Source of the DNA: a bacterium
GTDB lineage: Bacteria > JAHJDO01
Length of the DNA stretch: 36,916 nucleotides
NCBI GenBank assembly: GCA_030631525.1
Contig: DAOVKY010000001.1
Coordinates: forward strand, 1 to 36,916
Direction: 5' to 3'
The notes beneath the pieces are model-generated. The model had not been told where the DNA came from. It saw only the letters and a list, made by a program, of their open reading frames with translations, and did not search any database. The translations under genes and the position numbers were made by a program. Position 1 is the stretch's first letter. Every line of letters starts with the position of its first letter. This document shows, in pieces, positions 2,056 to 19,290 of this stretch.

Positions 2056-3108
2056 ATGGCATTCACAGACAAAGATATTTGCAATCTTGCCTTATCAAAA
2101 CTGGGCCAGTATCCCTTAATCACGTCGTTAGACAATGTTGATAAAAATTCCGTATTATGCAAACAAATGTATGGGCCCGCCAGAGACGCTGTATTAAGGA
2201 CTCATCCGTTTAATTGCGCGGTTAAGAAGGCTGATCTTGGCTCTGCTAATGTGCCGCCGGTGGAATGTTATTTTGACGATGCTGTTTATAATCAGGGGAC
2301 TTATGCTCTCCGTGTGATTGTGAAGGCTGCCGCTAGTGTTGCCAATTTCCTGCGCCATTCCTATTCTTCTGATCTGGATATCTCCGGGTTGGATTCCATC
2401 AAGATTGATTTACGCTCCACGTTTGTCGGGACTACTGCAGTTCATTTTAAATTCCATAGCAAACTGTCTGGTGATTGGACGTCTCAGACAGAGACCATTT
2501 CCGTAGAGAATACGTGGGAAACAAAAACTTTTGATATTTCTTCCATTGCTCAGAACTTGCGAGAGGACGTTGACAGGCTAGAGATTACTTTTGAGGATAA
2601 GGCATCGGATTATATGGTCTACATAGACAATATGTTTGCTACGTCTGGAGTGGCTGGGGATGAGGTAGAACTGGATTATATGGAGTATTCAAGCAACGCA
2701 TCGGCTCAATCTGCCTATGTAAGCGAATTTAGCTTGTTATTGTTTGGCTGGAGCTATATGTTTGATTTGCCAAGTTCTCCATATTGCCTGCGTGTGCTTC
2801 AAGTCAATGAAGCTAAGAGCAAATACAGGCTTGAAAAAAGAAAGATATTAACGAATACAGCTACAGTTCAGCTTGAGTTTGTAGAGCAAGTGGCTGATCC
2901 AACGGACTTTGACGCTATGCTTTATGATCTGATAGCGATTAGACTTGCAGGAGCCTTGGCAATCTCGATCACTGCTTCCACGACAAAGGCTGGGGCATTG
3001 CTCAAATTATACGATTACTTTTTGGGAGATACGAGAAGGGTTGACGCAAACGAACAGACGCCCAAAGAATTAGACGACGATGGTTCATGGATAAATTCAA
3101 GAAAATAA
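2056..3108 (+). CDS. Tail tubular protein A / head-tail adaptor (T7 gp11-like) with an inserted CBM-like beta-sandwich module
   Basis: The N-terminus ICNLALSKLGQYPLITSL resembles T7 gp11 VNDILASIGEPPVSTL. The C-terminal part (WSYMFDLP...LIAIRLAGALA) continues the fold. Residues about 72-196 (nt 2269-2643) are homologous to the modules in the nozzle gene. Confidence 0.6.
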   Translation: MAFTDKDICNLALSKLGQYPLITSLDNVDKNSVLCKQMYGPARDAVLRTHPFNCAVKKADLGSANVPPVECYFDDAVYNQGTYALRVIVKAAASVANFLRHSYSSDLDISGLDSIKIDLRSTFVGTTAVHFKFHSKLSGDWTSQTETISVENTWETKTFDISSIAQNLREDVDRLEITFEDKASDYMVYIDNMFATSGVAGDEVELDYMEYSSNASAQSAYVSEFSLLLFGWSYMFDLPSSPYCLRVLQVNEAKSKYRLEKRKILTNTATVQLEFVEQVADPTDFDAMLYDLIAIRLAGALAISITASTTKAGALLKLYDYFLGDTRRVDANEQTPKELDDDGSWINSRK

Positions 3109-3130: not shown

Positions 3131-3478
3131 ATGAAAAGAACAATGTGGTTAGTAGTTGGAGTGTTATTGCTGGTTTCCATTCTGGTCTATGCATCTGAGA
3201 TGATGGAAGTTAAACAGTATAAGTTTGCTGTAACTCCGGACGCAGAGGTCACTCAGGAATTGAGGAATGTTCGGGCAATAGAAATCTACAACGCAGGCAA
3301 GAATATCCGTGTGGCTTTTAACGATGTTACGACTGCTGACGGACAGGCATACTGGATTATTCCTGATAGCGCAGTTGGCTTTGAAAGAAACGATTTATTG
3401 CTGCAATATCTCACACTGAGATTAAAAGGGGATGGTGTAGGCGATAGTGCTACCGTCAGAGTAATTGTGTATAAATAG
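3131..3478 (+). CDS. Small protein with N-terminal signal peptide or TM helix
   Basis: GGGGGTGAGG RBS. The N-terminus MKRTMWLVVGVLLLVSILVYASE is hydrophobic. Confidence 0.6.
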   Translation: MKRTMWLVVGVLLLVSILVYASEMMEVKQYKFAVTPDAEVTQELRNVRAIEIYNAGKNIRVAFNDVTTADGQAYWIIPDSAVGFERNDLLLQYLTLRLKGDGVGDSATVRVIVYK

Positions 3479-3618
3479 GTAAACTATGATAAAAAAAAAG
3501 ATAAAGTCAAAAAAGGTTAAAAAAGAAAATCCGAAAGCGGTTTTTAATTCCTTTAGAAAAGCTGATAGAGCTGTAGTAAAAAAACACAGATTAATGGGAA
3601 GGTAGAATAATGCCTAAA

Positions 3619-4299
3619 CTATTTGGGAGTGCAGTTGATAAGATGTTTCCTGTGTTCAATGGAATGGCAATTTGGGCACAGGACTTCCAAGTTATCAAGT
3701 CTATTGTTTCGTCTATTTCTATCTTTGTGATGAATGCCAAGAATTTCTGGATGCTTATCATATCCGCATCTTTGACATTTTGTTATCCATCCTCTCCTTA
3801 CAAATGCTCTGCGAATACCATTAAGTTTCTTGACTCTGAATATCTCTCGCTGGGCAATATTATGGCAAGTATGACTACAAAACTTTGCTTTATTATTTCC
3901 TCTATATACATCAAATTTCTTTCCGCATTGTTGGCATATAATCGTTATAGAGCCAGAATAATATCCTGCTTTTTTTCTGCATGGTTTAGAGCAATACTTT
4001 GCTATCACATTTTTATTGCATTTATACGTAAATTTCTTTCCGCATTGAGTGCAAGTTCCTGTTCTCTCTTTGTTGTATTGTCTGAGATTAGCAAGTCCAT
4101 TACATCTATGGGAGCAAAATTTTGCATCTTTGCTTCTGCTTTTAGGAACATAAAAAGGTTTTTTACAATGCAAGCATATGATTTTTTCAGTATCATAAAT
4201 ATAGCGATTAGAACTATTGCGACATTTTATAGAGCAATATCTCGTTGCACGATAGCCATTGATAATTTTAGAACCGCAAGTTGGACATATTTTATTCAT
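3619..4299 (-). CDS. HNH homing endonuclease with four N-terminal CxxC...(F/Y)CSxxC zinc-ribbon repeats
   Basis: The C-terminus GIHHKDRNRRNNRLDNLEVLCPNCH is an HNH motif. The gene sits antisense between the adaptor and nozzle genes. ATG 4299 is preferred over TTG 4320. Confidence 0.85.
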   Translation of the reverse strand: MNKICPTCGSKIINGYRATRYCSIKCRNSSNRYIYDTEKIICLHCKKPFYVPKSRSKDAKFCSHRCNGLANLRQYNKERTGTCTQCGKKFTYKCNKNVIAKYCSKPCRKKAGYYSGSITIICQQCGKKFDVYRGNNKAKFCSHTCHNIAQREIFRVKKLNGIRRAFVRRGWITKCQRCGYDKHPEILGIHHKDRNRRNNRLDNLEVLCPNCHSIEHRKHLINCTPK

Positions 4300-4305
4300 G
4301 CAATA

Positions 4306-4334
4306 AGTATAACATTGCAATATCTATCTGTCAA
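4306..4334 (-). promoter_or_regulatory. Sigma70-like promoter for the antisense HNH gene
   Basis: On the minus strand: TTGACA (4334-4329), a 17-nt spacer, then TATACT (4311-4306). The ATG at 4299 begins 7 nt after the -10, so the mRNA may be leaderless. Confidence 0.5.
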
Positions 4335-4354
4335 GAGAAAAGGAGAAGTGTATC

Positions 4355-7300
4355 GTGCCACGTCAAGACCCCATTTTATCTAATTTTACGGCGGGAGAAA
4401 TTTCAAGTAGCCTCTATGGTAGAGTTGACTTGGCTAAGTATTACAATGGATGCAGACTTCTTGAGAATTATCTGATAAAGCCGCAGGGCGGTGCAGTTCG
4501 AAGGCCCGGAACTTATTACGTCGAAGATGTCAAATATCATAATCGGAAGGTGCGCTTAATTCCTTTTGAATTCTCTGATACTCAGGCATATATTCTTGAA
4601 TTCGGACATGAGTATATTCGTTTCTATATGGATGAAGGCCAGCTTCAATCTGGTTCTGCTGCGTATGAGATTGCTTCTCCCTATCAAGAAAGCGATCTAT
4701 TTGAACTTGATTATGCGCAGTCTGCCGATGTTATGTATATTGTTCATCCGGACTACGCTCCTAGAAAGCTGACACGGACTGGTCATACTGCTTGGACTTT
4801 ATCTACTCCAAGTTTCACTGCTAATCCATTCACAGGTGCGAATAAGTATCCTTCCTGTGTGGAATTCTTTGAGCAAAGGTTATTCTTCGCTAATAGCAAC
4901 GATGATCCTCAAAAAATATGGGGTTCAAAGTCTGCTGAATACGAAAATATGACTACAGGTGCCGGAGATGATGACGCTGTTGAATATACGATTGCTGCTT
5001 CAAAGGTTAATGCTATAAGGTGGCTACAGGCCAAAGATGTCTTATTGTTCGGCACAATAGGGGCAGAATGGAGATTGGGAGCTACCAGCGCAAGTGAGCC
5101 TATCACTCCGACAAATGTTTTATGCAGAAGGCAATCGACCTATGGCTCTGCGCTTGTTAAGCCGGTTACAGTCGGGCAAGCTATTCTATTCCTGCAGAGA
5201 GCAAGAAGGAAAGTTCGGGAGCTTGTTTATAGTTTTGAACAGGATACCTATCTGGCCCCTGATATGAATTTGCTTGCTGATCATATGACAAAAAGCGGCA
5301 TTGTAGATATGGCATATCAGCAAGAGCCTGATTCAATTCTCTGGTCTGTATTGAGTAATGGATATCTGGTTGGAATGACATATCAGCGGGATCAAGAGGT
5401 TGTTGGCTGGCATAGGCATATCACAAACGGAAAAGTTGAGAGTGTTGCCTGTATTCCCTCAAAGGAAGTGATCAGTGCTATTAAAGAAAGCGAAATTGAC
5501 TGGATGGAATATCCTACAGACGCATTGGCTCAAAATGCATATCCTGCTTATCCAAGAAAAGAAATAGACTATATGGAATATGCTACGAATGTGCTGGCGC
5601 AGGCGGCGTATGTGAGCGATGGTTCGGCAGTAGCTGATTGGACGACTTATGGAAGTCGGGGTATCGGAATAGGACAATTTTACGAAATTAAAGGAATACA
5701 TTATGACCCCGCAAGCGGATTTATTTATGTTGCGGATTGTCATAATGACCGCATAGTAAAAACAAAGATAGACGGCACAGGGTGGACTACGCTTGGCGGA
5801 TTTAATAAACCTATTGGAATATATTACGATTCCGCAAGTGGATTTATTTATGTTGGCAATGCAAATAGCAATAATATAGTAAAAACAAAGATAGACGGAA
5901 CAGGGTGGACTACGCTTGGCGGATTTTCAGAACCTAGAGGAATATATTACGATTCCGCAAGTGAATTTATTTATGTTATACAAGCTCATTTAATTATTAA
6001 GACAAAGATAGACGGAACAGGGTGGACTACTTACGGCTCGCAAGGCAGTGGAGTAGGACAATTTAGTTATCCTTCTGGAATACATTATGACCCTGCAAGT
6101 GGATTTATTTATGTTGCGGACTATAACAATGGTCGCATAGTAAAGACAAAGATAGACGGAACAGGGTGGACTACGCTTGGCGGATTTAATAAACCTAGAG
6201 GAATACATTATGACCCCGCAAGTGGATTTATTTATGTTGCGGACTATAGCAATGACCACATAGTAAAGACAAAGATAGACGGAACAGGGTGGACTACTTA
6301 CGGCTCGCAAGGCAGTGGAGTAGGACAATTTCATTCTCCTTTTGATATAGCCTATGACCCTGCAAGTGGATTTATTTATGTTGCGGACTATTATTATAAT
6401 GACCGCATAGTAAAAACAGACGCAGGCTGGGGAGGTTTACTTACTTTACAATCCTACTCCGAATCTATAATCAAATGGCAGGGTTCTTATTCTTTAAAAG
6501 GCGTAGCATTAATAACTGAAAGTCTCAACGACACACTCACTCGGACAGTAAGCCCAACAATAAATATGTCTGGGCAAAACAATATATTTTTAGATGTAAG
6601 AGCAAGCAGAACAGGTTCTAATTTCAAGATTGAGTTCCACGATAGTGGCGGGAATACGATAACGCATACAATAAATATAGTTGCTGCGAATACTTGGCAA
6701 ACTGAGGATATAGATATCTCTGCAGTCGCTGACGCTGATAAGGACGCTATTGATCAGATTAAAATAACGATATTAAATGCAGATGCTGAGAATATTTTCT
6801 ATCTTGACAATATTTTCACTGGTATTGATCTTAAAGCTTATTCAGCGTATCCCGCTCATGAGTATGATAGAGGAAATGGTTCTGACGGCGAAATAACGCT
6901 AGGATCAACAAAAAATATCAATACCGATGTTATTTCCTGTAGCCTTCAATGTTATTCCGAAGGCACGATAAAAACGCAAGGCACATATGCTTTAAAGATA
7001 TTGTCAGATCTGACAGGAAGTCTAAATCAAACGCTTACGAGAACGGTTAATCCTGTTATAGACTTAACGGATAAGACAGCAATTAAATTGGATATCCGGG
7101 CTTCAAGGACTGGCGAAAACTTCAAGATAGAGTTTCACGATTCAGGCGGGAATACTATCTCTCATACCATAGACATTGTCGCAGCTGATACCTTCCAAAC
7201 AGACACGATAGATATCTCAAGTGTAGCGAACGCAGACAAGGATGCTATTGATCAGATTAAGATAACAGTTCTAAATGCTGACGCATCGAATATCATCTAT

Positions 7301-9361
7301 GTAGACAATATATTTGCTGATCCTGCTGCTCTGACTTTAGACCTGATGGAGTATGCTGATGACGCTACAGCTCAGGCCGCTTATGTAAGCAGTATCAGGA
7401 CCCACGCTGACGGGATTAACTATGATGTAACGGCTCTGGGGGCTGATAGCATAACTGCTTCGGAAGCTCCTGCAGGGATTATTGCTGGAGAGATAGATCT
7501 GCTTATGAATATGCGAGGCGGTTCAACAAAATATGCTAATGTTGGGCAATACGAAACTGCGAAAGTGGCTTCTATCAACGCTAGTGTCATCACTTTAACT
7601 ACAAATATTTTAAAGATTTATGGCGAGTCTGCGAATTCAGATCTAACGGATCAGAAACTAATTGTCCAGCGAGTTCCTCAATATTCTGCGGTTACTATCA
7701 ATAATAGCGGGAAGCTGACTGCTACTGCTTGGAATGGAACAAAAGGCGGGGTTGTTGTCTTAATGTGCGCCGGCATTGTTGAAGTTAAGACAGGGGGCAG
7801 TATCGATGTTTCTGAATTAGGGTATAGAGGGGGGATAGGTTGTATTTCGGTTAACTGCACCGCATATCAGGGAGAAGGCAATAAAGGTGCTGGAAGTCAA
7901 TCCCTGCTTGCAAATGGCAACGGTGGTGGTGGTGGTTGGGGAATTAATAAAGTCTCTCCAGCAGATGAAGGAGCTGGCGGTTCAGGTGGACATATAAATG
8001 CAGGACAAAAGGGGAATGGAAGGGGTGGTGCCTATAAGGGCGGCGATGGCGGAGAAGCTGTCGGAAATGCTGATTTGAGTAAAATGTTTTTTGGTGGTGG
8101 TTCAGGTGGCGATGCACAACCTGAGCAGCCACAGAGGAATGGTGTTGCGGGTGGTGGTATTATCTATTTAATAACTGATGAAATTAAGGGGGCAGGTAAT
8201 ATATTTGCTAAAGGGAAACAAGGTCAAACGGAACAATGTTCGGGCGCTGGTGGTTCTGTTTTAGTTGAAAGGAATTTATATCAATTCACAGGCACTGTGT
8301 CTGTCGCAGGTGGTTTAGCAGGAGGCTGTGATCACTATTGTGGAAAAGCTGGCTCTGACGGCAGAAGTAAAACAGATTCAGAGGATGAAGATATAGTCGA
8401 GATACAAGGCGATTATTCATTAAAGGTTATTGCTAATCAGGATGATAGCGAGGACGGATATCTATTAAAAACCTTTGACTCTTCTTTGGATTTAAGCAAG
8501 GATAATACAATACAATTTTATACGAAATCAAACAGAGTTGGAGAGAATTTCAAACTGCAGATAAAAAGCGAGGATACGGAAGTCGTTACAGAAAAGTCAG
8601 TAAATATCCTTGTTGCTGATGAATGGCAGACTGTAGAATGGGATATTTCTGGGGTTGCAGAGAAAGATAAAAAAGATATCAAATGGCTCTATGTTGTAAT
8701 TACAAACGACGATGCTGAGAATACTTTTTACTTAGACAATATAATTGCTATAGGCGAGTATATCTCTACAGGCGAAGATCAAGTCTGGCTGGCAGTCAAG
8801 CGCACCATAAATGGGGTTGTAAAGCGATTTGTGGAGTATTTAAAGCCGCAAGCCTTTGCTAGTCTGCAGGACGCATTCTTCGTTGATTCTGGTCTGTCTT
8901 ATGATGGTTCTGCTGCGACAATTATATCAGGGTTGGATCATCTCATTGGCGAGGAAGTTGTTATTCTTGCTGATGGGCTTAAGATAGCGGCGCAAACAGT
9001 CAATGCAAGCGGGGAGATAACGCTGGAGACGGCTGCAAAGAAAGTTCATGCAGGTCTAGCTTCGCTTCCTAAGATACAAACAATGAATATAGAGGCTGGT
9101 TCTCAATTAGGGACTTCACAAGGCAAAATTAAGCGAATACACGAGGTTAAAATCAGACTGAAAGATACAGTCGGTGGTAAATTCGGTTATGACGAAAATA
9201 ACTTGGAGAGCATGTCAGGAACTGTCTTGTTTTCAGGCGATAAAATCGTGACCTTTCCTTATGGTTATGAGCGGGATTATTTCGTCATGATAACGCAGCC
9301 AGATCCTTTGCCGATGACAGTGATTGCGCTAATGCCTTCTATTGTTACAGAAGATGGATAA
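4355..9361 (+). CDS. Giant tail tubular protein B / nozzle-like protein (1,668 aa) with NHL propeller, three CBM-like modules and a Gly-rich domain inserted
   Basis: AAGGAG RBS and GTG start. The N-terminal part (about 370 aa) and the C-terminal part (about 200 aa, e.g. GKIKRIHEVKIRLKDTVGG) look like a podovirus nozzle core. It sits downstream of the gp11-like gene. The insert is described under findings. Confidence 0.65.
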   Translation: MPRQDPILSNFTAGEISSSLYGRVDLAKYYNGCRLLENYLIKPQGGAVRRPGTYYVEDVKYHNRKVRLIPFEFSDTQAYILEFGHEYIRFYMDEGQLQSGSAAYEIASPYQESDLFELDYAQSADVMYIVHPDYAPRKLTRTGHTAWTLSTPSFTANPFTGANKYPSCVEFFEQRLFFANSNDDPQKIWGSKSAEYENMTTGAGDDDAVEYTIAASKVNAIRWLQAKDVLLFGTIGAEWRLGATSASEPITPTNVLCRRQSTYGSALVKPVTVGQAILFLQRARRKVRELVYSFEQDTYLAPDMNLLADHMTKSGIVDMAYQQEPDSILWSVLSNGYLVGMTYQRDQEVVGWHRHITNGKVESVACIPSKEVISAIKESEIDWMEYPTDALAQNAYPAYPRKEIDYMEYATNVLAQAAYVSDGSAVADWTTYGSRGIGIGQFYEIKGIHYDPASGFIYVADCHNDRIVKTKIDGTGWTTLGGFNKPIGIYYDSASGFIYVGNANSNNIVKTKIDGTGWTTLGGFSEPRGIYYDSASEFIYVIQAHLIIKTKIDGTGWTTYGSQGSGVGQFSYPSGIHYDPASGFIYVADYNNGRIVKTKIDGTGWTTLGGFNKPRGIHYDPASGFIYVADYSNDHIVKTKIDGTGWTTYGSQGSGVGQFHSPFDIAYDPASGFIYVADYYYNDRIVKTDAGWGGLLTLQSYSESIIKWQGSYSLKGVALITESLNDTLTRTVSPTINMSGQNNIFLDVRASRTGSNFKIEFHDSGGNTITHTINIVAANTWQTEDIDISAVADADKDAIDQIKITILNADAENIFYLDNIFTGIDLKAYSAYPAHEYDRGNGSDGEITLGSTKNINTDVISCSLQCYSEGTIKTQGTYALKILSDLTGSLNQTLTRTVNPVIDLTDKTAIKLDIRASRTGENFKIEFHDSGGNTISHTIDIVAADTFQTDTIDISSVANADKDAIDQIKITVLNADASNIIYVDNIFADPAALTLDLMEYADDATAQAAYVSSIRTHADGINYDVTALGADSITASEAPAGIIAGEIDLLMNMRGGSTKYANVGQYETAKVASINASVITLTTNILKIYGESANSDLTDQKLIVQRVPQYSAVTINNSGKLTATAWNGTKGGVVVLMCAGIVEVKTGGSIDVSELGYRGGIGCISVNCTAYQGEGNKGAGSQSLLANGNGGGGGWGINKVSPADEGAGGSGGHINAGQKGNGRGGAYKGGDGGEAVGNADLSKMFFGGGSGGDAQPEQPQRNGVAGGGIIYLITDEIKGAGNIFAKGKQGQTEQCSGAGGSVLVERNLYQFTGTVSVAGGLAGGCDHYCGKAGSDGRSKTDSEDEDIVEIQGDYSLKVIANQDDSEDGYLLKTFDSSLDLSKDNTIQFYTKSNRVGENFKLQIKSEDTEVVTEKSVNILVADEWQTVEWDISGVAEKDKKDIKWLYVVITNDDAENTFYLDNIIAIGEYISTGEDQVWLAVKRTINGVVKRFVEYLKPQAFASLQDAFFVDSGLSYDGSAATIISGLDHLIGEEVVILADGLKIAAQTVNASGEITLETAAKKVHAGLASLPKIQTMNIEAGSQLGTSQGKIKRIHEVKIRLKDTVGGKFGYDENNLESMSGTVLFSGDKIVTFPYGYERDYFVMITQPDPLPMTVIALMPSIVTEDG
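5639..6430 (+). repeat. Six tandem coding repeats of about 117-141 bp (NHL-type propeller blades) with long exact DNA matches
   Basis: The blade consensus is WTT(Y/L)G..(F)..P.GI.YD.ASGFIYVAD..N.RIVKTKIDGTG. For example, about 62 nt at roughly 6002-6063 recur exactly at roughly 6269-6330. Confidence 0.85.
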
Positions 9362-9365
9362 ACTA

Positions 9366-9374
9366 TGGTATAAT
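9366..9374 (+). promoter_or_regulatory. Extended -10 element (TGgTATAAT) upstream of an HNH gene
   Basis: tggtataat at 9366-9374, followed by tgtttttGGAGGA and ATG 9392. The same layout occurs at 35804-35812. Confidence 0.35.
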
Positions 9375-9391
9375 GTTTTTGGAGGACTGAT

Positions 9392-10003
9392 ATGCCAACA
9401 GGAATTTACATAAGAACAAAAGAAGCAAGAGAGAATACAGGAAAAGCTAAAATGGGAAAGAAAAATCCTATGTTTGGGAAGCCGACTTGGAATAAAGGGA
9501 AAGTGGGAATTTATTCAAAAGAAACCTTAAGAAAAAACGTTGAAGCACATCTTGGTAAACACTCTGCGAATGAATTTAAAAAAGGACATAAAGCTTGGAA
9601 TAGAGGATTAAAAGGGGTTCTGAAAGCTTGGAATAAGGGAATTCCTAATCCAAATTTTCAGGGAGAAAATAATCCTAAATGGAAAGGTGGCATTACTCCT
9701 TTATACGACCGAATTAGAAAGCTACCAGAATACAAAGAATGGCGAACGTCTATTTACAAGCGAGATAACTATACCTGCCAAGAATGTGGCAGTCAAGAAA
9801 GCGGGACACTCAATGCACATCACAGTGATAAATTCTTTGCTGAATTACTTGCAGAGTTTCTGCAGGAGTATGACCAGTTCAGTCCGTATGAGGATATAGA
9901 TACGCTCTTGCGATTGGCGATGAAATGGCAGCCATTCTGGACTGCTGAGGGAATTACATATTGCGATGATTGTCATATAGAAGAACATAAGGGAAAGCGA
10001 TAA
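9392..10003 (+). CDS. HNH homing endonuclease (paralog family 'WKGGITP...DQFSPYED...CH')
   Basis: GGAGG RBS. The sequence NPKWKGGITPL...YKEWR...RDNYTCQECG...HH...LLAEFLQEYDQFSPYED..TLLRLA.KW.PFW.AEG...C..CH is shared with 19821-20516 and 35833-36516. Confidence 0.85.
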   Translation: MPTGIYIRTKEARENTGKAKMGKKNPMFGKPTWNKGKVGIYSKETLRKNVEAHLGKHSANEFKKGHKAWNRGLKGVLKAWNKGIPNPNFQGENNPKWKGGITPLYDRIRKLPEYKEWRTSIYKRDNYTCQECGSQESGTLNAHHSDKFFAELLAEFLQEYDQFSPYEDIDTLLRLAMKWQPFWTAEGITYCDDCHIEEHKGKR

Positions 10004-10441
10004 ATGGATATACACAAATTCTGTAAAATGCACATAGAAAAGCTGGATATCCCGAAAAATGAGAAGATAGATTTTTTAAAGTATTACGATTTATTTCTTG
10101 ACGGAGATAATTCGCCTTGTTTCACAGTTATGGATAATGACCTTGTAAAGGGTTGCGCGGGAATAAGAGGAATTAGTAAGGGGGTTGGAGAAGCTTGGGT
10201 TGTATTCAATCACGATTTCCTTGAAAAGCATAAAAAGGTTCTGTGCGTTAAGATTAAAAACTATATAGATTTTATTTCCGTAACATATGATTTACACAGA
10301 ATACAAGCATTAGTTGAATGCGATAATGATATACATAGGAAATTTATTAAAGTGATGGGTTTTCAATTTGAGGGCACACTCAGGGCTTATGATGAATATA
10401 AAAACGATTGGTTAATGTTTAGTATAGTGAAGGGGGTTTAA
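10004..10441 (+). CDS. Small GNAT-like (acetyltransferase-fold) protein
   Basis: The C-terminal pattern RIQALVECDNDIHRKFIKVMGFQFEGTLRAY...DWLMFSIV is typical of RimJ/RimL-like GNATs. The motif A region (RGISKGVGEAW) is atypical. Confidence 0.45.
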   Translation: MDIHKFCKMHIEKLDIPKNEKIDFLKYYDLFLDGDNSPCFTVMDNDLVKGCAGIRGISKGVGEAWVVFNHDFLEKHKKVLCVKIKNYIDFISVTYDLHRIQALVECDNDIHRKFIKVMGFQFEGTLRAYDEYKNDWLMFSIVKGV

Positions 10442-10442
10442 C

Positions 10443-10916
10443 ATGATAGGCGCAATAATAGCCATTGTCGCTGCTTTAGTCTCTGCTGGTTCCGCTGTAT
10501 ATTCTGCGCAGCAACAGCGTAAAACGGCGGCTTATAGGGCTAAATTAGCAGAGGAAGCCGGCGAGGAAGTAAAAGCAGGGACTGAATTGGATGTGGCCCG
10601 ACACAGGGAGAGAATAAAAAGACTAAGATCAACCCAAAGGGCTAAGTATGCGAAGTCTGGTGTTAAAATGGAAGGTTCGCCTCTTGAAGTGCTTGCTGAT
10701 ACTCAGGTTCAGGCTGATCTTGACGAAATGATTATCAGACATGGCGGTTATGTTACCGAGAGAGCGCATCAGCGTTCAGCTATGTGGGAGAGACGTGCTG
10801 GCAAGTCAGCTCAAACAGCGGGATATATAGGCGCAGGAACGTCGCTATTATCAGGCGCATATAGTGCCTATTCTGGTTATTCAGCCAGAAATCCTAAATT
10901 GTCAACAACAACGTAG
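10443..10916 (+). CDS. Internal virion/ejection protein (small, N-terminal TM, Gly/Ala-rich C-terminus)
   Basis: GGGGGT RBS. The N-terminus is MIGAIIAIVAALVSAGSAVYSA. It is the first of three genes at the position of T7 gp14-16. Confidence 0.5.
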   Translation: MIGAIIAIVAALVSAGSAVYSAQQQRKTAAYRAKLAEEAGEEVKAGTELDVARHRERIKRLRSTQRAKYAKSGVKMEGSPLEVLADTQVQADLDEMIIRHGGYVTERAHQRSAMWERRAGKSAQTAGYIGAGTSLLSGAYSAYSGYSARNPKLSTTT

Positions 10917-10924
10917 GTGTAATT

Positions 10925-12454
10925 ATGGGAAGAATACCGATTTATACTTCTCGGGCCACTATGAGAACGGGGCCAATTGTCAAGCCTCATCCTAAAACAG
11001 GGACAGAGGTGTCTGAGGCAATAGGTGCGTTTGCCCGGACTGTTGGCAAAGTTGGGGAGGACTGGGCTACTCAGAAAGCTTCGGTTGAGGCTCAGGCCGA
11101 GTATGCCAATAACACGCTTCTATATAAGCAGGCAGTAAATAACAATATTACAGTTCAATCCGAAGATGCGAGTATTGATCCTGACGATCTGGTTCCAAAT
11201 TATAAGAAATCAATGCAAGAAGTTTCTGGATCGTTGGTCTGGAAAAGCAAACTTGCACAGAAGCAGTTTGAGCTTAACAAAGGCAATTTTGACTTAGGGG
11301 CTGAACAGAGACTTAATGTTCTTGGTAGAAATAGATTTATCGCAAACATAAAGGCTGGGTATGAAACCTCTCGCAAGGCTGCAGTAGATAATGGGGATTT
11401 AAAAGGCGGTTTGTTAGCTCTGCAGGCGATAGAAAGTTCTTTTACTCCGGAGCAATACAAAGCTGAGAAAATAGACTTAATACACGACGTAGAATATGCT
11501 CAGGCTGGGCGTGCTTTAGCTTTGGATATAAATGCGGATTTGAAAGAGTTTAAGAATATATCCAAAGAAGAAAAAGTCAAATTGGTAAATAATGCCAAAT
11601 CTGCTGCTAGGGCAGAGGCAAATAGATTAAAAGCGGAACGCAAAGAAAATGAAAAAATATATTTTGAACAGACAAATGATACTTTTGATGAAGCATTTAG
11701 AAAAAATGAATTAACTATGCCGGAAGTAAATAATTCGATTTTACCTACCAAAGGAGAAGGTGGCAAGATTTGGTGGCGCAAAAAATTAACAACAAGTCCT
11801 GCAAGTGAATCTGATATTTCAGTAGTAAAAGATATAAGAAGAAAACGAGCCATAGGGACGCTTACTCTTGTTGATATAGATTCAAAACAAGACAAATTAA
11901 CTAGGGCTGATTATATTCGCTTTAGTAGTGAAAAAAAGAAAAGACAAAAAGAGATAATTGACGGTAAATATATTCCTAGCGTATTTGAAGAAAAATCATA
12001 TATGTTTATGGATGAATTAGATAGACTTGTAGATAATGGCACGGTAACAGACAAGGAAGCAGAGGAAGCAAAGTTGAAGTTGCCCGAACAATTATATGAT
12101 AGAGCAATGAAGGAAGGATTTACAGAAAAGCAAATTACCGATTATTCAGAATTTCTGATAGGAAGCTATTTATTAAAAGAATCACAAATCAGAAGGGATG
12201 CCTCAGCATTTAAAAAATTCATGAGCTTTATGGGTTCAAATGTTCAAGGACTTATAAGAGAATCTCGTAGAGAAAAAAGGGTAGAAGCATTACCCACAGA
12301 AGCCGACTTTCCAACTGAAGAAATAGAAGAAGAGGCGATTGAAATTAAAGATATCACTCCAGAGAATGTTGCGCATTTATCTGATTGGTTAAAGAAAAAC
12401 AAAAAACTTGTTAATGAAAAAAACATAAGATATTTATATGAACAACTTAAATGA
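10925..12454 (+). CDS. Internal virion/ejection protein (coiled-coil rich)
   Basis: 509 aa, K/E-rich and helical. Assigned by synteny with gp15-type proteins only. Confidence 0.45.
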   Translation: MGRIPIYTSRATMRTGPIVKPHPKTGTEVSEAIGAFARTVGKVGEDWATQKASVEAQAEYANNTLLYKQAVNNNITVQSEDASIDPDDLVPNYKKSMQEVSGSLVWKSKLAQKQFELNKGNFDLGAEQRLNVLGRNRFIANIKAGYETSRKAAVDNGDLKGGLLALQAIESSFTPEQYKAEKIDLIHDVEYAQAGRALALDINADLKEFKNISKEEKVKLVNNAKSAARAEANRLKAERKENEKIYFEQTNDTFDEAFRKNELTMPEVNNSILPTKGEGGKIWWRKKLTTSPASESDISVVKDIRRKRAIGTLTLVDIDSKQDKLTRADYIRFSSEKKKRQKEIIDGKYIPSVFEEKSYMFMDELDRLVDNGTVTDKEAEEAKLKLPEQLYDRAMKEGFTEKQITDYSEFLIGSYLLKESQIRRDASAFKKFMSFMGSNVQGLIRESRREKRVEALPTEADFPTEEIEEEAIEIKDITPENVAHLSDWLKKNKKLVNEKNIRYLYEQLK

Positions 12455-15400
12455 TTTAGATTTTAGCAAGGTGGATATGTCTAAACTTGAGGACGCGCCT
12501 AAAAGCGTTATGATTGACTTATCTAAACTTGAAAAGGAGCCTGAAAAGATAGAACCGAGAGAGTTACCTAAGTGGGAAGCATTAGATTTCGGTGATAGGG
12601 TTTTCAATAGGATAAGGAGTATTTCTCCACAAGTTTATGATAGAAATGTAAGAGATGCTAGAGCAATAAGAAATTTCATGGAAGAGACAAAAGAAACACT
12701 TACAAAAATGCCGGATCCAGAGTTAATATTGGAAGGAATCCCAAAAGCAGTTGCCAAAGGTTCTATATATACGCTATCAACATTAGGCACTCAAGTTGAA
12801 TGGTTTGGCGAAATGTTGGCAAATCCCTCTCTTAATGAATTAAATCCTATGACACCGGCAGAAAAAATGATGGCGAATATGAATAAAGTTGCTGGTGATT
12901 ATGTTGCTGAATATGGCAGGACAGCGGCTGAATATTGGGCGAAAAAAGCAGAAGGAATAAAGTTTACGCCTGAACTATTAGAGGCTTTGAGTGGAGACTT
13001 AAAAGATGAATTCTGGTTAAAATCAAGCGTATTGGTATCGCAAGCCATTCCTTCATTGGCAATGTCATGGGGAGTTGGAGCAACCACTGGAAGCACGATT
13101 GCGGCAGTTGCAGTATTAGGCGGATTGGAAGCGGCGCCGGAATATAAAGCCGCCAGAAAAGCAGGAAAAACAGTTGAAGAAGCCACTCTTATTGGTGCTG
13201 CTGTATGGGCTGGAGTAAGCGTATTAGAATATTATCCAATGAATTTTATTTTAGGCGGCGGCACAGGTAAGGTAATGAGTTCAATGTTTATTGCAGGATT
13301 AGCAGGAGCAGGAGAAGAAGGATTACAGGGGATATGGACAAATCTAGTAGCCAAAATAGGATATGATAAGACAAGAGAACTAATGGAAGGATTTGCGGAA
13401 AATATTATAGCAGGGGCAGGTTCTCAAGGTTTATTTGGTGGCTTTTCAGCCAGTAGAATGAATAGATTTACAGAATTAAAAAATGAGGCAGGATTAACAA
13501 AATCAGAATTAGGCATGTTGTATGAGCAGATAACCTCTCTGATTATAAAGAAAGCTCCTGAAATAGAAAATAAATTGAAAGCACTTCAAGCATTAGTTCC
13601 AGCATTAAGTATTGAGGAGATTAAAAAATTAAAATTGCCTGAGACAGAAAAAGAAATATGGCAGATGACAAGAACAGAATTAAAAGCATATAACGAGGGA
13701 AAACTAAAAATAGCAGAAAAAGAAGGAAAGGATATATTCTTTCAACAAAATTTATATCCTACTGATGAACGCACATTGGGAAGAATACATGAAGAAAGTG
13801 TTATGCGAGCGATTGAAGAAGGAGAATCTATCCCAAAAAAGGTATTGGCAGAATATCCTAAATTAAAGAAAAAAATCATAACACCGGCAAAGAAACCTGC
13901 TAAAGTTGTAAAAGAAGTTAAAGAGCCTGTTGAGACATTTACTCAAAAATTACAAAAGATAGAACAGGAATTCAAAACCGTAAGAGCTAGGACAAAAGCA
14001 GAAATAAAAGTAATTCAAACAGAAATTATTAAAGAATTAGAAACATCAAAACTTGAAGCTAAAGACAAAGCAAAGTTTATTCGGGCAATAAAGAACGTTC
14101 AAACACAACAACAGCTTATTAAGCAACTGCCTATCATACAAGAGCGTGTTGCTACATTGGAAACAAAGGCGCAGGTCAGAAAGATTAAATCGCAGATCAA
14201 GAGAACTGTTAAAGCTACAAAACCGAGAAAAGTAGCAGGGAAACCAAAAGGCAGGTTTACGCCAGAAGTTCAAGAGGTTTTGGATATTTTTAGGAATACA
14301 GTTAAATTAGGTCAAGATGCTGCAATAGAGCGTCTTAATGCCAATCTTGCGAAAGAGGGGATACCTTCTCCTATAAATGCGCTAGAGAATAAATTGCTTT
14401 CTCTTATGTCCGGACAGGCTCTAACTCCACTAGAATTGCAAGATTTATTAGGCAATATAGCAGCATTAAAAGAGGGTGGAGCTGCTATTGCTAAAATTGA
14501 AGTTGTAAAGAAACGTGAACAACGCAAAGTTGAGCGGGAAGAATCATTGAAGGATATTATCGGCACAAAAACACCAAGCATATCACGCATAAAAAAAACT
14601 GGCGATAAACTAAAGAAAACTTTCAAATCTCTTAGTCATACTGTATTGGGTTGGGATAATTTAATGAATCTGCTTGCTATTGATAATAAACTTGCACCCG
14701 GAGAAAGTCGTATAGAAAAAATAACAAAAGTGAGCCATTTAGAGACAGCAGAAAAACGAACTGTGCGCATTGCCATTGAAGATGTTACCAAAAAGGCTAT
14801 GGATAGCTTCGGATTTACTACAGAGAAGCAACTTATAAATAAATTCAGAGAAGATTCCAAGATTGAATCGTTGGGAATATTTAAAAATGCGAGAAATGAG
14901 GAAGTTAATTTTGAATTAAGCAAATCAGAAGCGCGCAAATTATGGATGGAAATGCAGGACAAAACATTGCGAGAAACATTTTTCACTGAAAAAGGCAATG
15001 CCTATACAGCTACCATGATGCAGGCAGTTTATGAATTCTTGGGCCAAGAAGATAGGGCATTTGCTATGGCTCAATTAGATTTCTACCGAGCTTTTTATAA
15101 TCAAGTTAATGAGGTATATTCAAAAGGCTATGGTATAAATCTGCCATTTAATGAATTTTATAGTCCGATAAGCAGAGAGTATAAAGACATTACGATCACA
15201 GATGAATTTTTAAAGGAAATGAATTTCAGGCGTTCAGTTACTACCGGAAGCCTGAAGAGCAGGATATCTAATGTGAGACCAATAAAACCGCAATCTGATA
15301 TAGCAGTTTTGCAAAAACATATAATTGAAATGAGCCACTTTATTGTCTGGTCTGATAAAATCAGCCAACTAAATAATATATTCACAGACAATAAGATAAA

Positions 15401-16676
15401 GGACATGATAGATAAGAAATTCGGTTCAGGGATGCAGAAATCTATAAATATCAATATAAGCAATTATACAAGAGGCGGAATTGATAATACTCAAAGATTT
15501 GGAATGTTAGATAAAATTAGAGTAAATTTTACAAGAAGCGTATTAGCTGTAAAAGCCGCATTATTTGCGAAACAAATGGTTTCTTTTATAGCTTATGCAG
15601 ATGATGTTTCTACAACTGATTTTATTGCTGGAGTGTTAGACTTCACAGCTCATCCAATGAGAAGCACAGAGATATTGAACAAATCAGAGTTAATGAAAGC
15701 TAGGGGCATGAACTTAACAAGAGATATAAAAGATGCAATGAAAAGCGAGGAATGGTCTGCATTTAAGAAAAACCCTAATTTCCTTAACTCTCTAATGTTT
15801 ATGACAAAATTAGGTGATAGGGGAGCTATCTTATTAGGTGGCTGGTCAGTCTATAAATCCGCGCTCAAGCAAGGGAAAAGCAAATCAGAGGCTATGGCAC
15901 TATTTGAAGAAAAAACATCAGCTACTCAGCAATCAGCAGACTTATCTCAATTATCACAATGGCAGACAGCTAATTCATTTCAGAAAATGTTTACAATGTT
16001 CACATCTTCACAGAATCAATATTATCGTAAAGAATATATGGCTATTAGAAATTTAATTGCAGGCAAAGTAAGTCCGGTAAAAGCGGCCAAAACTATTTTG
16101 ATTTATCATTTTCTATTGCCAATGTTATTTCAGTTAGTATCTGATTTTGGAAAATGGGATAAAGAGGAGCAATTAAGAGCCGCTATATTAGGATCCGCAA
16201 ATGGTATTTTTATAGTTAATGATATATTGAATAATATTCTACGCACAATGATTGGTTTAAAAACATATGAATTTTCAGTTGCTCCCGCCACCATAATAAA
16301 AAAGATTACATACGCATTTAAAAAACTTACAACAGACGATTTATCTAGCGAGGATGTTATTGAAGCTATGAAGGATTTTGGCGAAGTTGGCGGCTATATA
16401 TCATCATTGCCAATTAAACAGGTAAATGATTGGCTGGAAGGAGTAAAAAACATACAGGAAGGCGAAACAGGCAGAGGCGCATTAAAATTATTAGGATGGT
16501 CTCCCTATGTAATTGAAAAACAATTAGGGAAGAAAAGAATAAAGTTGCCGGCAGCACTAGAGAAAAGAAGAGAAGCGTTAATAAAGAGACAAAAAATATC
16601 AACTCGCAAAGCATCTAAAACAAAACGAAAAGCGTTAGAGGCTAGACGGAAAGCATTTTTAAAGAGGAGAAAATGA
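12438..16676 (+). CDS. Large internal virion/ejection protein (1,412 aa)
   Basis: This is the largest gene after the nozzle, at the gp16-like position. It has Gly/Ala-rich hydrophobic segments (about aa 195-340), a long K/E coiled coil, and a polybasic C-terminal tail. No catalytic motif was recognised. Confidence 0.5.
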   Translation: MNNLNDLDFSKVDMSKLEDAPKSVMIDLSKLEKEPEKIEPRELPKWEALDFGDRVFNRIRSISPQVYDRNVRDARAIRNFMEETKETLTKMPDPELILEGIPKAVAKGSIYTLSTLGTQVEWFGEMLANPSLNELNPMTPAEKMMANMNKVAGDYVAEYGRTAAEYWAKKAEGIKFTPELLEALSGDLKDEFWLKSSVLVSQAIPSLAMSWGVGATTGSTIAAVAVLGGLEAAPEYKAARKAGKTVEEATLIGAAVWAGVSVLEYYPMNFILGGGTGKVMSSMFIAGLAGAGEEGLQGIWTNLVAKIGYDKTRELMEGFAENIIAGAGSQGLFGGFSASRMNRFTELKNEAGLTKSELGMLYEQITSLIIKKAPEIENKLKALQALVPALSIEEIKKLKLPETEKEIWQMTRTELKAYNEGKLKIAEKEGKDIFFQQNLYPTDERTLGRIHEESVMRAIEEGESIPKKVLAEYPKLKKKIITPAKKPAKVVKEVKEPVETFTQKLQKIEQEFKTVRARTKAEIKVIQTEIIKELETSKLEAKDKAKFIRAIKNVQTQQQLIKQLPIIQERVATLETKAQVRKIKSQIKRTVKATKPRKVAGKPKGRFTPEVQEVLDIFRNTVKLGQDAAIERLNANLAKEGIPSPINALENKLLSLMSGQALTPLELQDLLGNIAALKEGGAAIAKIEVVKKREQRKVEREESLKDIIGTKTPSISRIKKTGDKLKKTFKSLSHTVLGWDNLMNLLAIDNKLAPGESRIEKITKVSHLETAEKRTVRIAIEDVTKKAMDSFGFTTEKQLINKFREDSKIESLGIFKNARNEEVNFELSKSEARKLWMEMQDKTLRETFFTEKGNAYTATMMQAVYEFLGQEDRAFAMAQLDFYRAFYNQVNEVYSKGYGINLPFNEFYSPISREYKDITITDEFLKEMNFRRSVTTGSLKSRISNVRPIKPQSDIAVLQKHIIEMSHFIVWSDKISQLNNIFTDNKIKDMIDKKFGSGMQKSININISNYTRGGIDNTQRFGMLDKIRVNFTRSVLAVKAALFAKQMVSFIAYADDVSTTDFIAGVLDFTAHPMRSTEILNKSELMKARGMNLTRDIKDAMKSEEWSAFKKNPNFLNSLMFMTKLGDRGAILLGGWSVYKSALKQGKSKSEAMALFEEKTSATQQSADLSQLSQWQTANSFQKMFTMFTSSQNQYYRKEYMAIRNLIAGKVSPVKAAKTILIYHFLLPMLFQLVSDFGKWDKEEQLRAAILGSANGIFIVNDILNNILRTMIGLKTYEFSVAPATIIKKITYAFKKLTTDDLSSEDVIEAMKDFGEVGGYISSLPIKQVNDWLEGVKNIQEGETGRGALKLLGWSPYVIEKQLGKKRIKLPAALEKRREALIKRQKISTRKASKTKRKALEARRKAFLKRRK

Positions 16677-17200: not shown

Positions 17201-17506
17201 GTGAAGAATTTCTCTGGTAACTATATTAACGTCCTAACATCTGACCAGAAGATTGCTTTAGACAGTGCTGTTGCTGATGATCATGTGCATACCTATGAAA
17301 AACACACAGTAACGGCAGGAGAGGAAGCATCGGGGATTATAACTGTGCCTACTTACGTAACGGGCGATGATTCGTTAAGGGTGTTTTTAAATGGTATGTT
17401 GCAATGCGTAACGGATGACTATGCAGAAACAGATACAACTACAATCACTTTTGTGGCTGACAGACTGACAGAAGGGGATGTTTTGATATTGAGAGGCATA
17501 ACATGA
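17201..17506 (+). CDS. Small tail-fibre-associated structural protein
   Basis: GTG start, and an ATGA overlap with the fibre gene. The pattern LRVFLNGMLQ...DY....TTITF......GDVLIL is common in fibre N-terminal domains. Confidence 0.45.
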   Translation: MKNFSGNYINVLTSDQKIALDSAVADDHVHTYEKHTVTAGEEASGIITVPTYVTGDDSLRVFLNGMLQCVTDDYAETDTTTITFVADRLTEGDVLILRGIT

Positions 17507-19290
17507 AAAAATACATATTTTTATTTATTGTATTATTTGCATTATCTTGCAATTTACAAGCTACGCAGATAGGAACAAAGCAAATAAAGGATCAAGCAAT
17601 AACTACGGCTAAGATAGATGATGAGGCGGTAAATGATACCAAATTAGAATCTGTACTCAAAGCTAAAATTCCAAGTGCTGACGAAAAAGATGCGATGTCA
17701 GGAGCAGCTTCTCCTTCTAGCGCGAATGTGTTTGCTACTATGGATGATGTAACTACTTTAAACACAGGAGTGCAGATTATTACGCCCGGAAAGAATATGG
17801 GCAATTCTGGCACAGCTGCAAATCCCATTCTCGACATGAATGTAAACGATAGCGCAACGTCAGACACGGAGCCATGGTCAGCTGCAAAGATAACATCAGA
17901 ATTAGCCGATAAATTAGATATAGCAGATTCAACACTATTTATATGGAAAGACGGCTTACAAGACTTCACGGCAAATCAATCTCTAGGCGGGTTTAAAATA
18001 ACTACATCAGATGAACCTTCAGCAGACAGCGATTTGGCAACAAAGTATTATGTAGACCAAAACGCAGGTGATATGCTCAAGTCAACCTACGACCCAAATG
18101 ATGACGGTAAAATAGCAGAAGCTCAACTAGACCTTGACATAGCCACAATACAATTATGGAAACAAAACTGTTTTAATGCTTTCAGAATAGGCGGTTATGT
18201 AAGAATGATAGATGGACTTGCTAATGACTTTTCTACAGAAAATGAGGGCATAGATACAACTAATAGTGATACATATTTATATAATGTAGCAGGGGATTAT
18301 TATTATCAGGATGAGGGCGGGGCGGGTACTCCTGCCACTTTAGTATATTGGTCTAAATTAGAAAGTGCGGCTGATATAACTTCTCCTCAAGTTGGAGTTG
18401 GCGGAACGATGGATGGGTCTCCAACATATGCTGCTTGTAAATTCAATAATGGAATATATTGTAATGTTGCTGGTGAAGCATACCATGTCCCGAACACAGC
18501 TTCATTTTTATCAGGGAATGAATGTACACTTGAATTCTGGATAAAAACTGATTTTAATGTTGTAAATGGTGTAGCTTCTGATGCTATTCATACCATAGCA
18601 TCTTTAAATCCAGCAGGAAATGCTTTAATGAATTTTGAGTTTTCAGCAAGTGGTATTGGAATTATTAGAAGAAATGATGCCGCAGGTTGGGTAAATTGCC
18701 ATGATACTACTACTGATTGGACTGCTGGAGATTTGGTTCATCTTGCTTTTGTTTGGGATATAGCCGCAGGATTTGACGGCACAAAGACGATGGCTGTTTA
18801 TGTTAATGGAGTAGAAACCGCCAATACATCAGGCGCTCTTGGCGCATTTACTGATGATGCCACAGACTTTTATGTTTGTGATGGTTCAGCTCTTACACTA
18901 GGTCTTGATGCAATAATGGATAATATTAAAATCTGGGATTATGCAAAGATAGATTTTAGTGATAAGGATACAGAGGGTTATGCAACTGGTGGTGGCAATA
19001 TGGAGCTTTACACTGACTATTTTCAGATAGGTATTACTCCAGTAACTGTGAAGGCTTTACTCTTTGCAAATAAAACTCCAAACTCTGTAAAATTGACACG
19101 CACAGGAACAGGAAGCAGTCTCACAACTGCGAGCTTGGCTGATACTGATATCGAGAGTTCGGGATTGTACGCATATTTATACACAGCAGATGTTTCGGGA
19201 GAGAGCAGTGATACCTGTATCCGTGCAGAAATCATTTCGGATGACACAGAATGCTATATATATGGACTGAGTTTGCTCGGTCTTGAATAA
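17503..19290 (+). CDS. Tail fibre / receptor-binding protein with a LamG (concanavalin-like lectin) domain
   Basis: Fibre-type repeats IKDQAITTAKIDDEAVNDTKLES. The LamG_3-like pattern is LEFWIKTDF...LVHLAFVWD...MAVYVNGVE...DNIKIWDYA (about nt 18340-18950). The N-terminus is hydrophobic. Confidence 0.65.
   Translation: MKKYIFLFIVLFALSCNLQATQIGTKQIKDQAITTAKIDDEAVNDTKLESVLKAKIPSADEKDAMSGAASPSSANVFATMDDVTTLNTGVQIITPGKNMGNSGTAANPILDMNVNDSATSDTEPWSAAKITSELADKLDIADSTLFIWKDGLQDFTANQSLGGFKITTSDEPSADSDLATKYYVDQNAGDMLKSTYDPNDDGKIAEAQLDLDIATIQLWKQNCFNAFRIGGYVRMIDGLANDFSTENEGIDTTNSDTYLYNVAGDYYYQDEGGAGTPATLVYWSKLESAADITSPQVGVGGTMDGSPTYAACKFNNGIYCNVAGEAYHVPNTASFLSGNECTLEFWIKTDFNVVNGVASDAIHTIASLNPAGNALMNFEFSASGIGIIRRNDAAGWVNCHDTTTDWTAGDLVHLAFVWDIAAGFDGTKTMAVYVNGVETANTSGALGAFTDDATDFYVCDGSALTLGLDAIMDNIKIWDYAKIDFSDKDTEGYATGGGNMELYTDYFQIGITPVTVKALLFANKTPNSVKLTRTGTGSSLTTASLADTDIESSGLYAYLYTADVSGESSDTCIRAEIISDDTECYIYGLSLLGLE

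Follow-up and report, generated by a model that had tools for sequence, protein, structure and literature searches.

Where a podovirus keeps the parts with which it recognizes its host is the question raised by a very long gene on the contig DAOVKY010000001.1, of which the whole stretch of 36,916 nucleotides (nt) was analyzed (hereafter the window). The window is the contig of an uncultured aquatic podovirus of the Carin-1/HTVC010P-like kind, and the gene in question, at positions 4355-9361 of the plus strand, codes for a protein of 1,668 amino acids (aa). An earlier note, made from the sequence alone, had read it as a tail nozzle into which about 1,100 aa of putative binding domains were inserted, with a sister module in the adaptor. 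The open reading frame (ORF) was confirmed over its full extent, with a GTG start, 1,668 codons and internal stops absent. In the present analysis the nozzle hub itself is concluded to be probably a swappable host-recognition device, in which a single loop of a conserved core carries an array of domains with an exchangeable cassette.

The assignment of the ORF to tail nozzles of the Carin-1/LME-1/HTVC010P type is based on homology to two solved nozzles and on gene order. PDB entry 8ck1_A, a 'Tail Nozzle' traced by tblastn to Cobetia phage Carin1, matched the ORF with an E value of 1.1e-94 in four collinear stretches (aa 4-151, 161-368, 1475-1522 and 1519-1664, aligned to 8ck1_A residues 10-157, 328-537, 542-589 and 669-825, respectively). 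The first two stretches, together with phrog_376 and a profile of the nozzle core, delimit an N-terminal core part (aa 1-368, 4355-5458), and the last two, together with the same profile, a C-terminal part (aa 1475-1668, 8777-9361). Run against the PDB at E<=0.01, the core profile found only 8ck1 (8ck1_A, E 1.4e-176) and 9efk (9efk_M, the nozzle of Legionella phage LME-1, E 5e-50); T7 gp12 and P22 gp10, to which the core had been likened in the earlier note, were not found. That comparison finds no link in sequence here, and the likeness to T7 is one of structure, as published for LME-1's portal-tail complex (9EFK), which is T7-like in structure without sequence similarity and has its nearest resemblance in Carin-1; the tails of both LME-1 and Carin-1 possess a dodecameric adaptor and a hexameric nozzle, and LME-1 bears six fibre trimers (PMC12407071). 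PHROG 376 'tail protein' matched the ORF with E 2e-199, and among cultured phages the nearest relative is 'tail tubular protein B', as carried by HTVC010P-type pelagiphages (46-51% identity at 31-39% query coverage, corresponding to the core). The genes follow each other in the order adaptor, nozzle, internal virion (ejection) proteins, in synteny with two sister contigs (L001 and L002). With aa 4-368 and 1475-1664 aligned to 8ck1_A, the terminal parts could be accepted as nozzle core, and the large insertion between them was found as well: judged by the alignment, some 1,107 residues lie between aa 368 and 1475, within one core loop in which Carin-1 has about five.

The insert consists, in this order, of two junction motifs, an NHL propeller, a first carbohydrate-binding module (CBM)-like module (M1), a spacer, a second such module (M2), a third junction motif, a beta-barrel subdomain with a Gly-rich domain, and a third module (M3), which amounts to about five to seven domains of three or four kinds. 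The former count of at least 5 kinds of binding domain per subunit was too high, and neither the beta-barrel subdomain nor the three copies of a 20-aa junction motif had been listed in it. Two of these copies, located like the third by motif scan, stand in tandem and lead out of the core (EIDWMEYPTDALAQNAYP at 5504-5542 and EIDYMEYATNVLAQAAYVS at 5573-5611, within aa 369-427); the third (LDLMEYADDATAQAAYVS, 7346-7384, aa 998-1015) forms a short strand and a helix in the AlphaFold2 model, with a low predicted local distance difference test score (pLDDT). The cassette that follows the tandem pair occupies 5636-6445. Six sequence repeats (aa 428-694, 5636-6436) with blades of 39-52 aa, a match to Pfam NHL (PF01436) of 81.2 bits, the cut-off being 20 (E 2.7e-23), and matches to the NHL structures of TRIM71 and TRIM2 among PDB sequences (E 3e-22 to 1e-10) characterize it, on sequence criteria, as a six-bladed NHL propeller, in agreement with the proposal made earlier for 5639-6430. 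A first scan of genome contigs with the propeller alone yielded nothing; when it was repeated from an alignment, relatives of the NHL type came up in diverse uncultured lineages only, e.g., Omnitrophota, Saccharibacteria, Berkelbacteria and Thermoplasmata, which point to neither a host nor a donor. Members of an IVKTKIDGTGW-type NHL subfamily (loci L006-L034) were also present in metagenome-assembled genomes of Anoxymicrobiaceae, Nanoarchaeota and Planctomycetota, in a patchy, cross-domain distribution, and metagenomic proteins of this subfamily have a length of 1,400-2,700 aa. Within positions 5753-6418 the propeller blades are 85-92% identical in DNA (periods of 123 nt and 267 nt), which suggests recent duplication or homogenisation inside the cassette.

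It is in the slot of the propeller that close relatives differ most. Two sister proteins, P0002 (1,712 aa) and P0003 (1,633 aa), originate from independent assemblies of other samples, and the sister genomes share 77-93% DNA identity with the window. Their N-terminal core is 98% (P0002) and 86% (P0003) identical to that of the query nozzle, and M1, spacer, M2 and M3 retain 80-98% identity (M1 and M2 alone 84-91%); the Gly-rich part, with 65-67%, is the next most divergent after the propeller slot, in which identity amounts to only 14-20%. At this slot P0002 holds a BNR/sortilin-like propeller and P0003 a LamG_3 domain, and a counterpart of positions 5617-6448 is absent from both sister contigs. 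The three genomes are near-identical in DNA as far as the second junction motif; identity ends behind its last codon, to be resumed at CAATCCTACTCCGAATC (QSYSES). Variation of the insert between relatives, which the earlier note had proposed to look for, is thereby documented, and the comparison of sequences argues that the propeller slot is an exchangeable specificity cassette. A scan of IMG/VR with the M1-to-M3 region returned no relatives.

The CBM-like modules, located by tblastn and blastp (E 1e-10 to 1e-55) and by alignment, are far more uniform. M1 (6446-6823, aa 698-823) and M2 (6944-7321, aa 864-989) are 70% identical and have the same coordinates as the two tandem modules of about 125 aa recognized before, whose quoted consensus string was reproduced by the alignment; M3 (8393-8749, aa 1347-1465), also foreseen, is 33-39% identical to M1 and M2. 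The M1-M2 spacer of about 40 aa (6824-6943, aa 824-863, read from the translation) contains GNGSDGEITLGS, which resembles the G-x-G-x-DG start of the family consensus of the Gly-rich domain; speculatively, this spacer may be what is left of a domain since deleted. An AlphaFold2 model of aa 860-1475 (mean pLDDT 80.6; 65-86 in the block of M2, 76-91 in that of M3) was used for a fold search, in which Foldseek matched the modules with probability 1.0 to the mannanase CBM 1wky, the agarase 4bq2, the CBM16 2zez and the CBM X584 8qx6. The root mean square deviation (rmsd) to 1wky was 3.4 Å over 118 columns, and the target-normalised template modelling score (TM) was 0.40-0.50 for the stand-alone CBMs 2zez and 8qx6. 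On this model the repeated module is predicted to adopt a CBM-like/galactose-binding-like jelly-roll fold. In Pfam nothing significant came from the modules taken singly, nor from the Gly-rich or the linker region, and the term 'lectin' applied to the array earlier is overstated, being read from the fold and not backed by membership in a Pfam or CBM family.

The beta-barrel subdomain and the Gly-rich domain (7400-8386, aa ~1016-1344) together form a discrete domain with stand-alone bacterial homologues. The conserved domain spans aa ~1001-1344, with the barrel at aa ~1020-1115, and the Gly-rich stretch noted before at 7661-8368 makes up its C-terminal two thirds. Modelled alone by AlphaFold2, the Gly-rich domain reached a pLDDT of 91.2 and a predicted TM of 0.91; its best folds in the PDB were tailspike beta-helices (Foldseek E 2e-4, TM ~0.19, rmsd 15-19 Å), and the N-terminal barrel resembled small barrels such as the FCCH domain of Uba1. 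No match to Pfam Beta_helix or pectate-lyase was obtained in the Gly-rich region, and a profile of the domain found nothing among PDB sequences. The Gly-rich stretch was thus correctly placed, and the former designation 'beta-helix-like' is unproven because the best PDB matches attain a TM of only ~0.19 despite a pLDDT of 91; going by the model, the domain appears confidently folded and without a close solved relative. Its relatives in sequence are stand-alone proteins of 350-620 aa on bacterial contigs, adjoining A2M and peptidase genes. The AgmC N-domain (NF047640) matched with E 8.4e-23 at 81 bits against a cut-off of 275, which makes the domain a remote relative and not a member of that family, and proteins of Bathycoccus and Ostreococcus viruses (prasinoviruses) matched with E 3e-19 and 2.5e-16. 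The best viral structural matches were prasinovirus proteins, too (BFVD A0A7S6NY19, A0A6H1QWC9). In the sister comparison 45 of 54 Gly positions of the Gly-rich part were invariant, as opposed to 56 of 143 other positions (Fisher p 2e-8), and the loops between the conserved Gly runs were hypervariable and carried indels. Conserved glycine-rich motifs separating hypervariable segments are a feature of T-even gp38-type adhesins, with which the domain shares invariant Gly runs and indel-rich loops. It differs from them in that a sequence or Foldseek match to gp38 structures is absent, in its larger size (~230 aa plus barrel) and in its sequence relatives, namely secreted proteins of bacteria, the N-domain of AgmC and prasinovirus proteins.

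The nozzle is not the only decorated hub protein. The ORF at 2056-3108 of the plus strand (350 aa, with an insertion at aa ~70-229) was matched in two stretches by the phrog_394 tail protein (E 1.3e-40) and weakly at aa 6-69 by the Carin-1 'Connector Protein' 8ck1_E (E 0.0016), and is on these matches assigned to the podovirus adaptors (tail tubular protein A, gp11-like). The 22 pelagiphage records of tail tubular protein A (~187 aa) that match do so only at aa 7-69 and 230-349, nearly always as two separate pieces. The 160-aa insert comprises one module and then one junction motif. The module (MA, 2269-2643) was recovered with the nozzle modules by tblastn and blastp (E 3e-22 to 2e-10) and is 27-31% identical to them, which upholds the fourth copy claimed for the adaptor; the motif (LDYMEYSSNASAQSAYVS, 2680-2718, from the motif scan) closes the insert and is also found in adaptor relatives. 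Decorated adaptors of 350-357 aa occur in seven metagenomic clusters (P0150-P0156), and an eighth, P0157 (583 aa), has an extra LamG_3 domain between module and motif. Judging from these sequences, the insertion site of the adaptor is modular, too.

A profile of the four modules recovered 1,387 clusters at 50% identity among 1.84 billion representatives, 396 of them at E<=1e-30. A nozzle or adaptor core was found in none of the top 147 new module-bearing representatives, and on that account the CBM-like module is not a nozzle marker. The domain content of the 41 top-ranked matches scanned included Gly_rich_2 (20 of 41), LamG_3, fn3 and F5/8C in Pfam, and tail fibre, tail fibre assembly, baseplate wedge, virion structural protein and central tail fibre J in PHROGs. 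The junction motif (consensus E-[LIV]-D-[YL]-M-E-Y-[AS]-[ST]-D-A-x-A-Q-A-A-Y-V-[ST]-S, 20 aa, D3 invariant) is present in 95 of the 147 representatives, frequently close to the N-terminus or as two or three copies in tandem, and was counted 125 times in 104 of the ~300 proteins retrieved; more distant decorated nozzles carry it as well. Since module family and motif occur in fibre and baseplate proteins of aquatic phages, the insert is regarded as built from a kit common to these proteins. P0198 (1,677 aa), a protein similar to the siphovirus central tail fibre J (phrog_31, 1e-54), bears all three of these parts, junction motif, CBM-like module and Gly-rich domain, and the kit therefore decorates hub proteins of another morphotype. 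Neither module family nor motif has a Pfam entry or a function in the phage annotation libraries searched. The motif is a candidate linker, docking peptide or recombination joint, and might act as a recombination site, as a docking/folding element, or both. A more far-reaching reading would be that the hub proteins nozzle and adaptor absorbed whole receptor-binding arrays of the fibre type, with the motif as a universal joint by which propeller, LamG, CBM-like and Gly-rich cassettes move in frame between virion proteins of unrelated structure (nozzle, adaptor, fibres, baseplate wedges, siphovirus central fibres) and across morphotypes; it is offered tentatively, as less likely than not.

The question whether such a nozzle is singular was addressed with 109 nozzle homologues with a recognisable core. 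Most of them carry inserts of 80-450 aa, at four fixed sites: site A (query aa 99/104; median insert 82 aa, range 3-444), site B (159/165; 91 aa, 5-362), site C (368/1476; 186 aa, 5-1,151) and site D (1520/1521; 0 aa, 0-456). Decoration is, for this reason, the rule in the nozzle family, and the idea that a decorated nozzle would be without precedent, as the earlier note, aware of no described nozzle of this architecture, might suggest, is wrong for the family, all the more as GenBank already labels nozzles of Vibrio phages as 'chitin-binding type-3' or 'FCCH domain' proteins; searches of the literature returned nothing pertinent on nozzles with inserted or carbohydrate-binding domains, nor on 8CK1, Carin1 or AgmC. 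Insert types in the family comprise E1_FCCH, LamG_3, F5/8 type C and WD40/PD40 propellers. Nozzles of the Carin-1, LME-1 and HTVC010P type have a homologous core in both halves and the same gene position, but in Carin-1 site C is filled by about 5 residues and site B by about 170 aa, whereas in the query sites A and B are empty and site C holds 1,107 aa. The ordinary metagenomic nozzles (~925 aa, annotated as E1_FCCH) and those of Vibrio phages share core and four hot spots with the query, and small beta-barrel, LamG, F5/8C or propeller inserts are usual in them; their inserts, however, total ~360 aa and are spread over three sites. A typical homologue measures 925 aa, more than 1,000 aa at one site was seen only in the query, P0002 and P0003 (the next largest insert has 470 aa), and only these three show the order of propeller or LamG cassette, two CBM-like modules, Gly-rich domain and third CBM-like module. 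By this comparison the query nozzle is the extreme of its family in size and complexity.

A parallel from another morphotype is provided by siphophages, in which CBM insertions in the hexameric Dit hub aid adsorption (PMC10688798, PMC7533335, PMC7291167). The 'evolved' Dit of siphophages of lactic acid bacteria is likewise a hexameric hub with CBMs in a loop, alongside dedicated receptor-binding proteins, but of an unrelated protein fold and another phage morphotype, so that this is analogy and not homology; its inserts are one or two CBMs in the papers cited, as compared to a seven-part array with an exchangeable distal cassette in the query. In this analogy the query nozzle may be taken as the podovirus counterpart of 'evolved Dit' hubs and as an extreme variant of a known principle.

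On the basis of the identity of nozzle and adaptor, the domain map, the exchange of cassettes and the distribution of the module family demonstrated above, a working of the hub can be proposed. The nozzle would be hexameric, with a dodecameric adaptor above it, and its permissive core loop, site C (aa 368-1475), carries the 1,107-aa string of self-contained beta-rich domains, the kinds of which are those of tail fibres, baseplate proteins and central fibres of aquatic phages. With a T7-like stoichiometry of 6 nozzles and 12 adaptors, the DNA exit would be surrounded by 6 propellers, by as many Gly-rich domains and by 30 CBM-like modules. Domains of the NHL, CBM-like and Gly-rich type are compact, self-contained folds of a sort that is monomeric as a rule, in keeping with display from a ring of six-fold or twelve-fold symmetry in which no trimers need form. 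The conserved CBM-like modules would mediate multivalent low-affinity attachment to surface polysaccharide, specificity would be set by two fast-changing parts, the outermost cassette and the hypervariable Gly-rich loops, and new specificities would be obtained by in-frame recombination at conserved junctions, the left one being the ELDYMEY..AQAAYVS motif and the right one LQSYSES. As a whole, this explanation, comprising a nozzle with a site-C array, multivalent attachment, swapped specificity parts and junction recombination, is considered fairly probable.

Several points weigh against it. The modules exceeded the threshold of no Pfam or CBM family (the best was Mann_GBD_bact with E 0.008 and 16.8 against 27 bits), and the type of ligand is inferred, as are outward exposure and orientation of site C, oligomeric state and a role in adsorption. 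NHL propellers can be enzymes or binders of protein or RNA, and the NHL cassette was seen in a nozzle on this contig only. Moreover, the phage has kept a separate LamG protein, correctly noticed before beside the hub (ORF 17503-19290, LamG_3 E 3.6e-12), which may be the true primary receptor-binding protein.

This last protein also lends weight to the view that the array is a general 'stickiness' decoration for particles, mucus, exopolymer and non-host surfaces rather than a determinant of host recognition. Ig-like capsid decorations, which hold virions on surfaces, set a precedent for it, the CBM-like modules are kept at 84-97% between the sister phages, as expected for a generic ligand, and elsewhere members of the NHL subfamily belong to giant surface proteins from a very diverse range of uncultured bacteria and archaea, which suggests generic adhesion. 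However, the array is situated at the DNA-exit hub and not on the capsid, change between near-identical phages is fastest in the distal cassette and the Gly-rich loops, a pattern typical of host-range determinants, and the same module family recurs in fibre, baseplate and central-fibre proteins; mere stickiness is rated as unlikely. An enzymatic function of part of the insert, with the Gly-rich domain as a tailspike-like depolymerase or the propeller as a lactonase/esterase clearing capsule or exopolysaccharide ahead of the nozzle, would have a model in the tail tubular protein A of KP32, a hub protein reported to act on glycans by degrading exopolysaccharide (PMC5440376). Closest to the Gly-rich domain in the PDB are indeed depolymerase or tailspike beta-helices, LKA1 gp49, phi297 gp61, the P560 depolymerase and AP22 gp54 (E 2e-5 to 6e-4), but the TM is only 0.19 for the domain alone and 0.11-0.13 in the multi-domain model, a Beta_helix or pectate-lyase match is absent from Pfam, a conserved acidic catalytic pattern was not identified, and glycines make up the conserved positions, an indication of a scaffold and not of an active site. 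The Arylesterase (E 2.7e-13) and Lactonase (E 7e-4) profiles that match the propeller do so within the NHL repeats, the Lactonase match falling below the gathering score and neither profile having a stretch that passes by itself, and we regard the enzymatic alternative as quite unlikely.

It could also be asked whether the NHL segment, or even all of the insert, arose by a chimeric joining of cellular to phage reads, considering that a nozzle with this cassette is confined to one contig, that the nearest relatives of the cassette are cellular proteins and that internal DNA repeats of 85-92% identity are hard to assemble. Both junctions, however, are in frame and exactly at domain borders, the same borders enclose different cassettes in two assemblies made independently from other samples, which show 65-98% identity over the remainder of the insert, and the GC content of the cassette (0.399) equals the genome mean (0.395). 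Because such in-frame, domain-exact borders are seen in three assemblies, an assembly chimera was rejected on comparative grounds as very unlikely.

In its remainder the window shows a capsid gene (274-1149, PF19821), genes for internal virion proteins (10004-10916), a gene for a 1,412-aa protein (12438-16676), a replication and recombination module on the minus strand and a terminase gene (32259-33698); a portal counterpart (PF12236) was called in the sister contig L002. No tRNA genes were found in the window, a near-identity DNA search of 25 kb of it against 50,697 phage records gave no match, and PDB sequence searches with the LamG protein and a 509-aa ORF gave nothing useful. Positions 1-60 form a tandem repeat encoding two copies of the Lys/Glu-rich peptide AAGGCAAAGAGCCTGAAAAGAAAGCTGACG. 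The contig has no terminal direct repeat, and its circular completeness is for that reason not shown. Four HNH-type endonuclease genes are present in this 37-kb genome (3619-4320 and 21223-21819 on the minus strand, 9392-10003 and 19821-20516 on the plus strand), two of which bracket the nozzle gene. The upstream one combines Zn-ribbon repeats with HNH, and a plus-strand ORF at 3610-4383, overlapping the nozzle start, was dismissed as its spurious shadow. Counterparts of both flanks of the nozzle gene (3478-4337 and 9363-10425) are absent from the sister contig L002.

Binding modules in hub proteins are already established for siphophage Dit, and the present case extends this principle without adding a new one. 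By-products worthy of follow-up are the large unnamed module family brought to light (at least 1,387 clusters at 50% identity), the conserved junction motif and the unsolved Gly-rich fold. Podoviruses of the HTVC010P/Carin-1-like kind have been isolated on major marine bacteria such as Pelagibacter, and the determinants of their host range are poorly known. If the hub carries exchangeable cassettes with conserved junctions, regions of host specificity could be located directly in metagenomic contigs, the diversity of cassettes could be sampled with primers on the conserved flanks, and the loops of nozzle and adaptor would be candidate sites for engineered retargeting.

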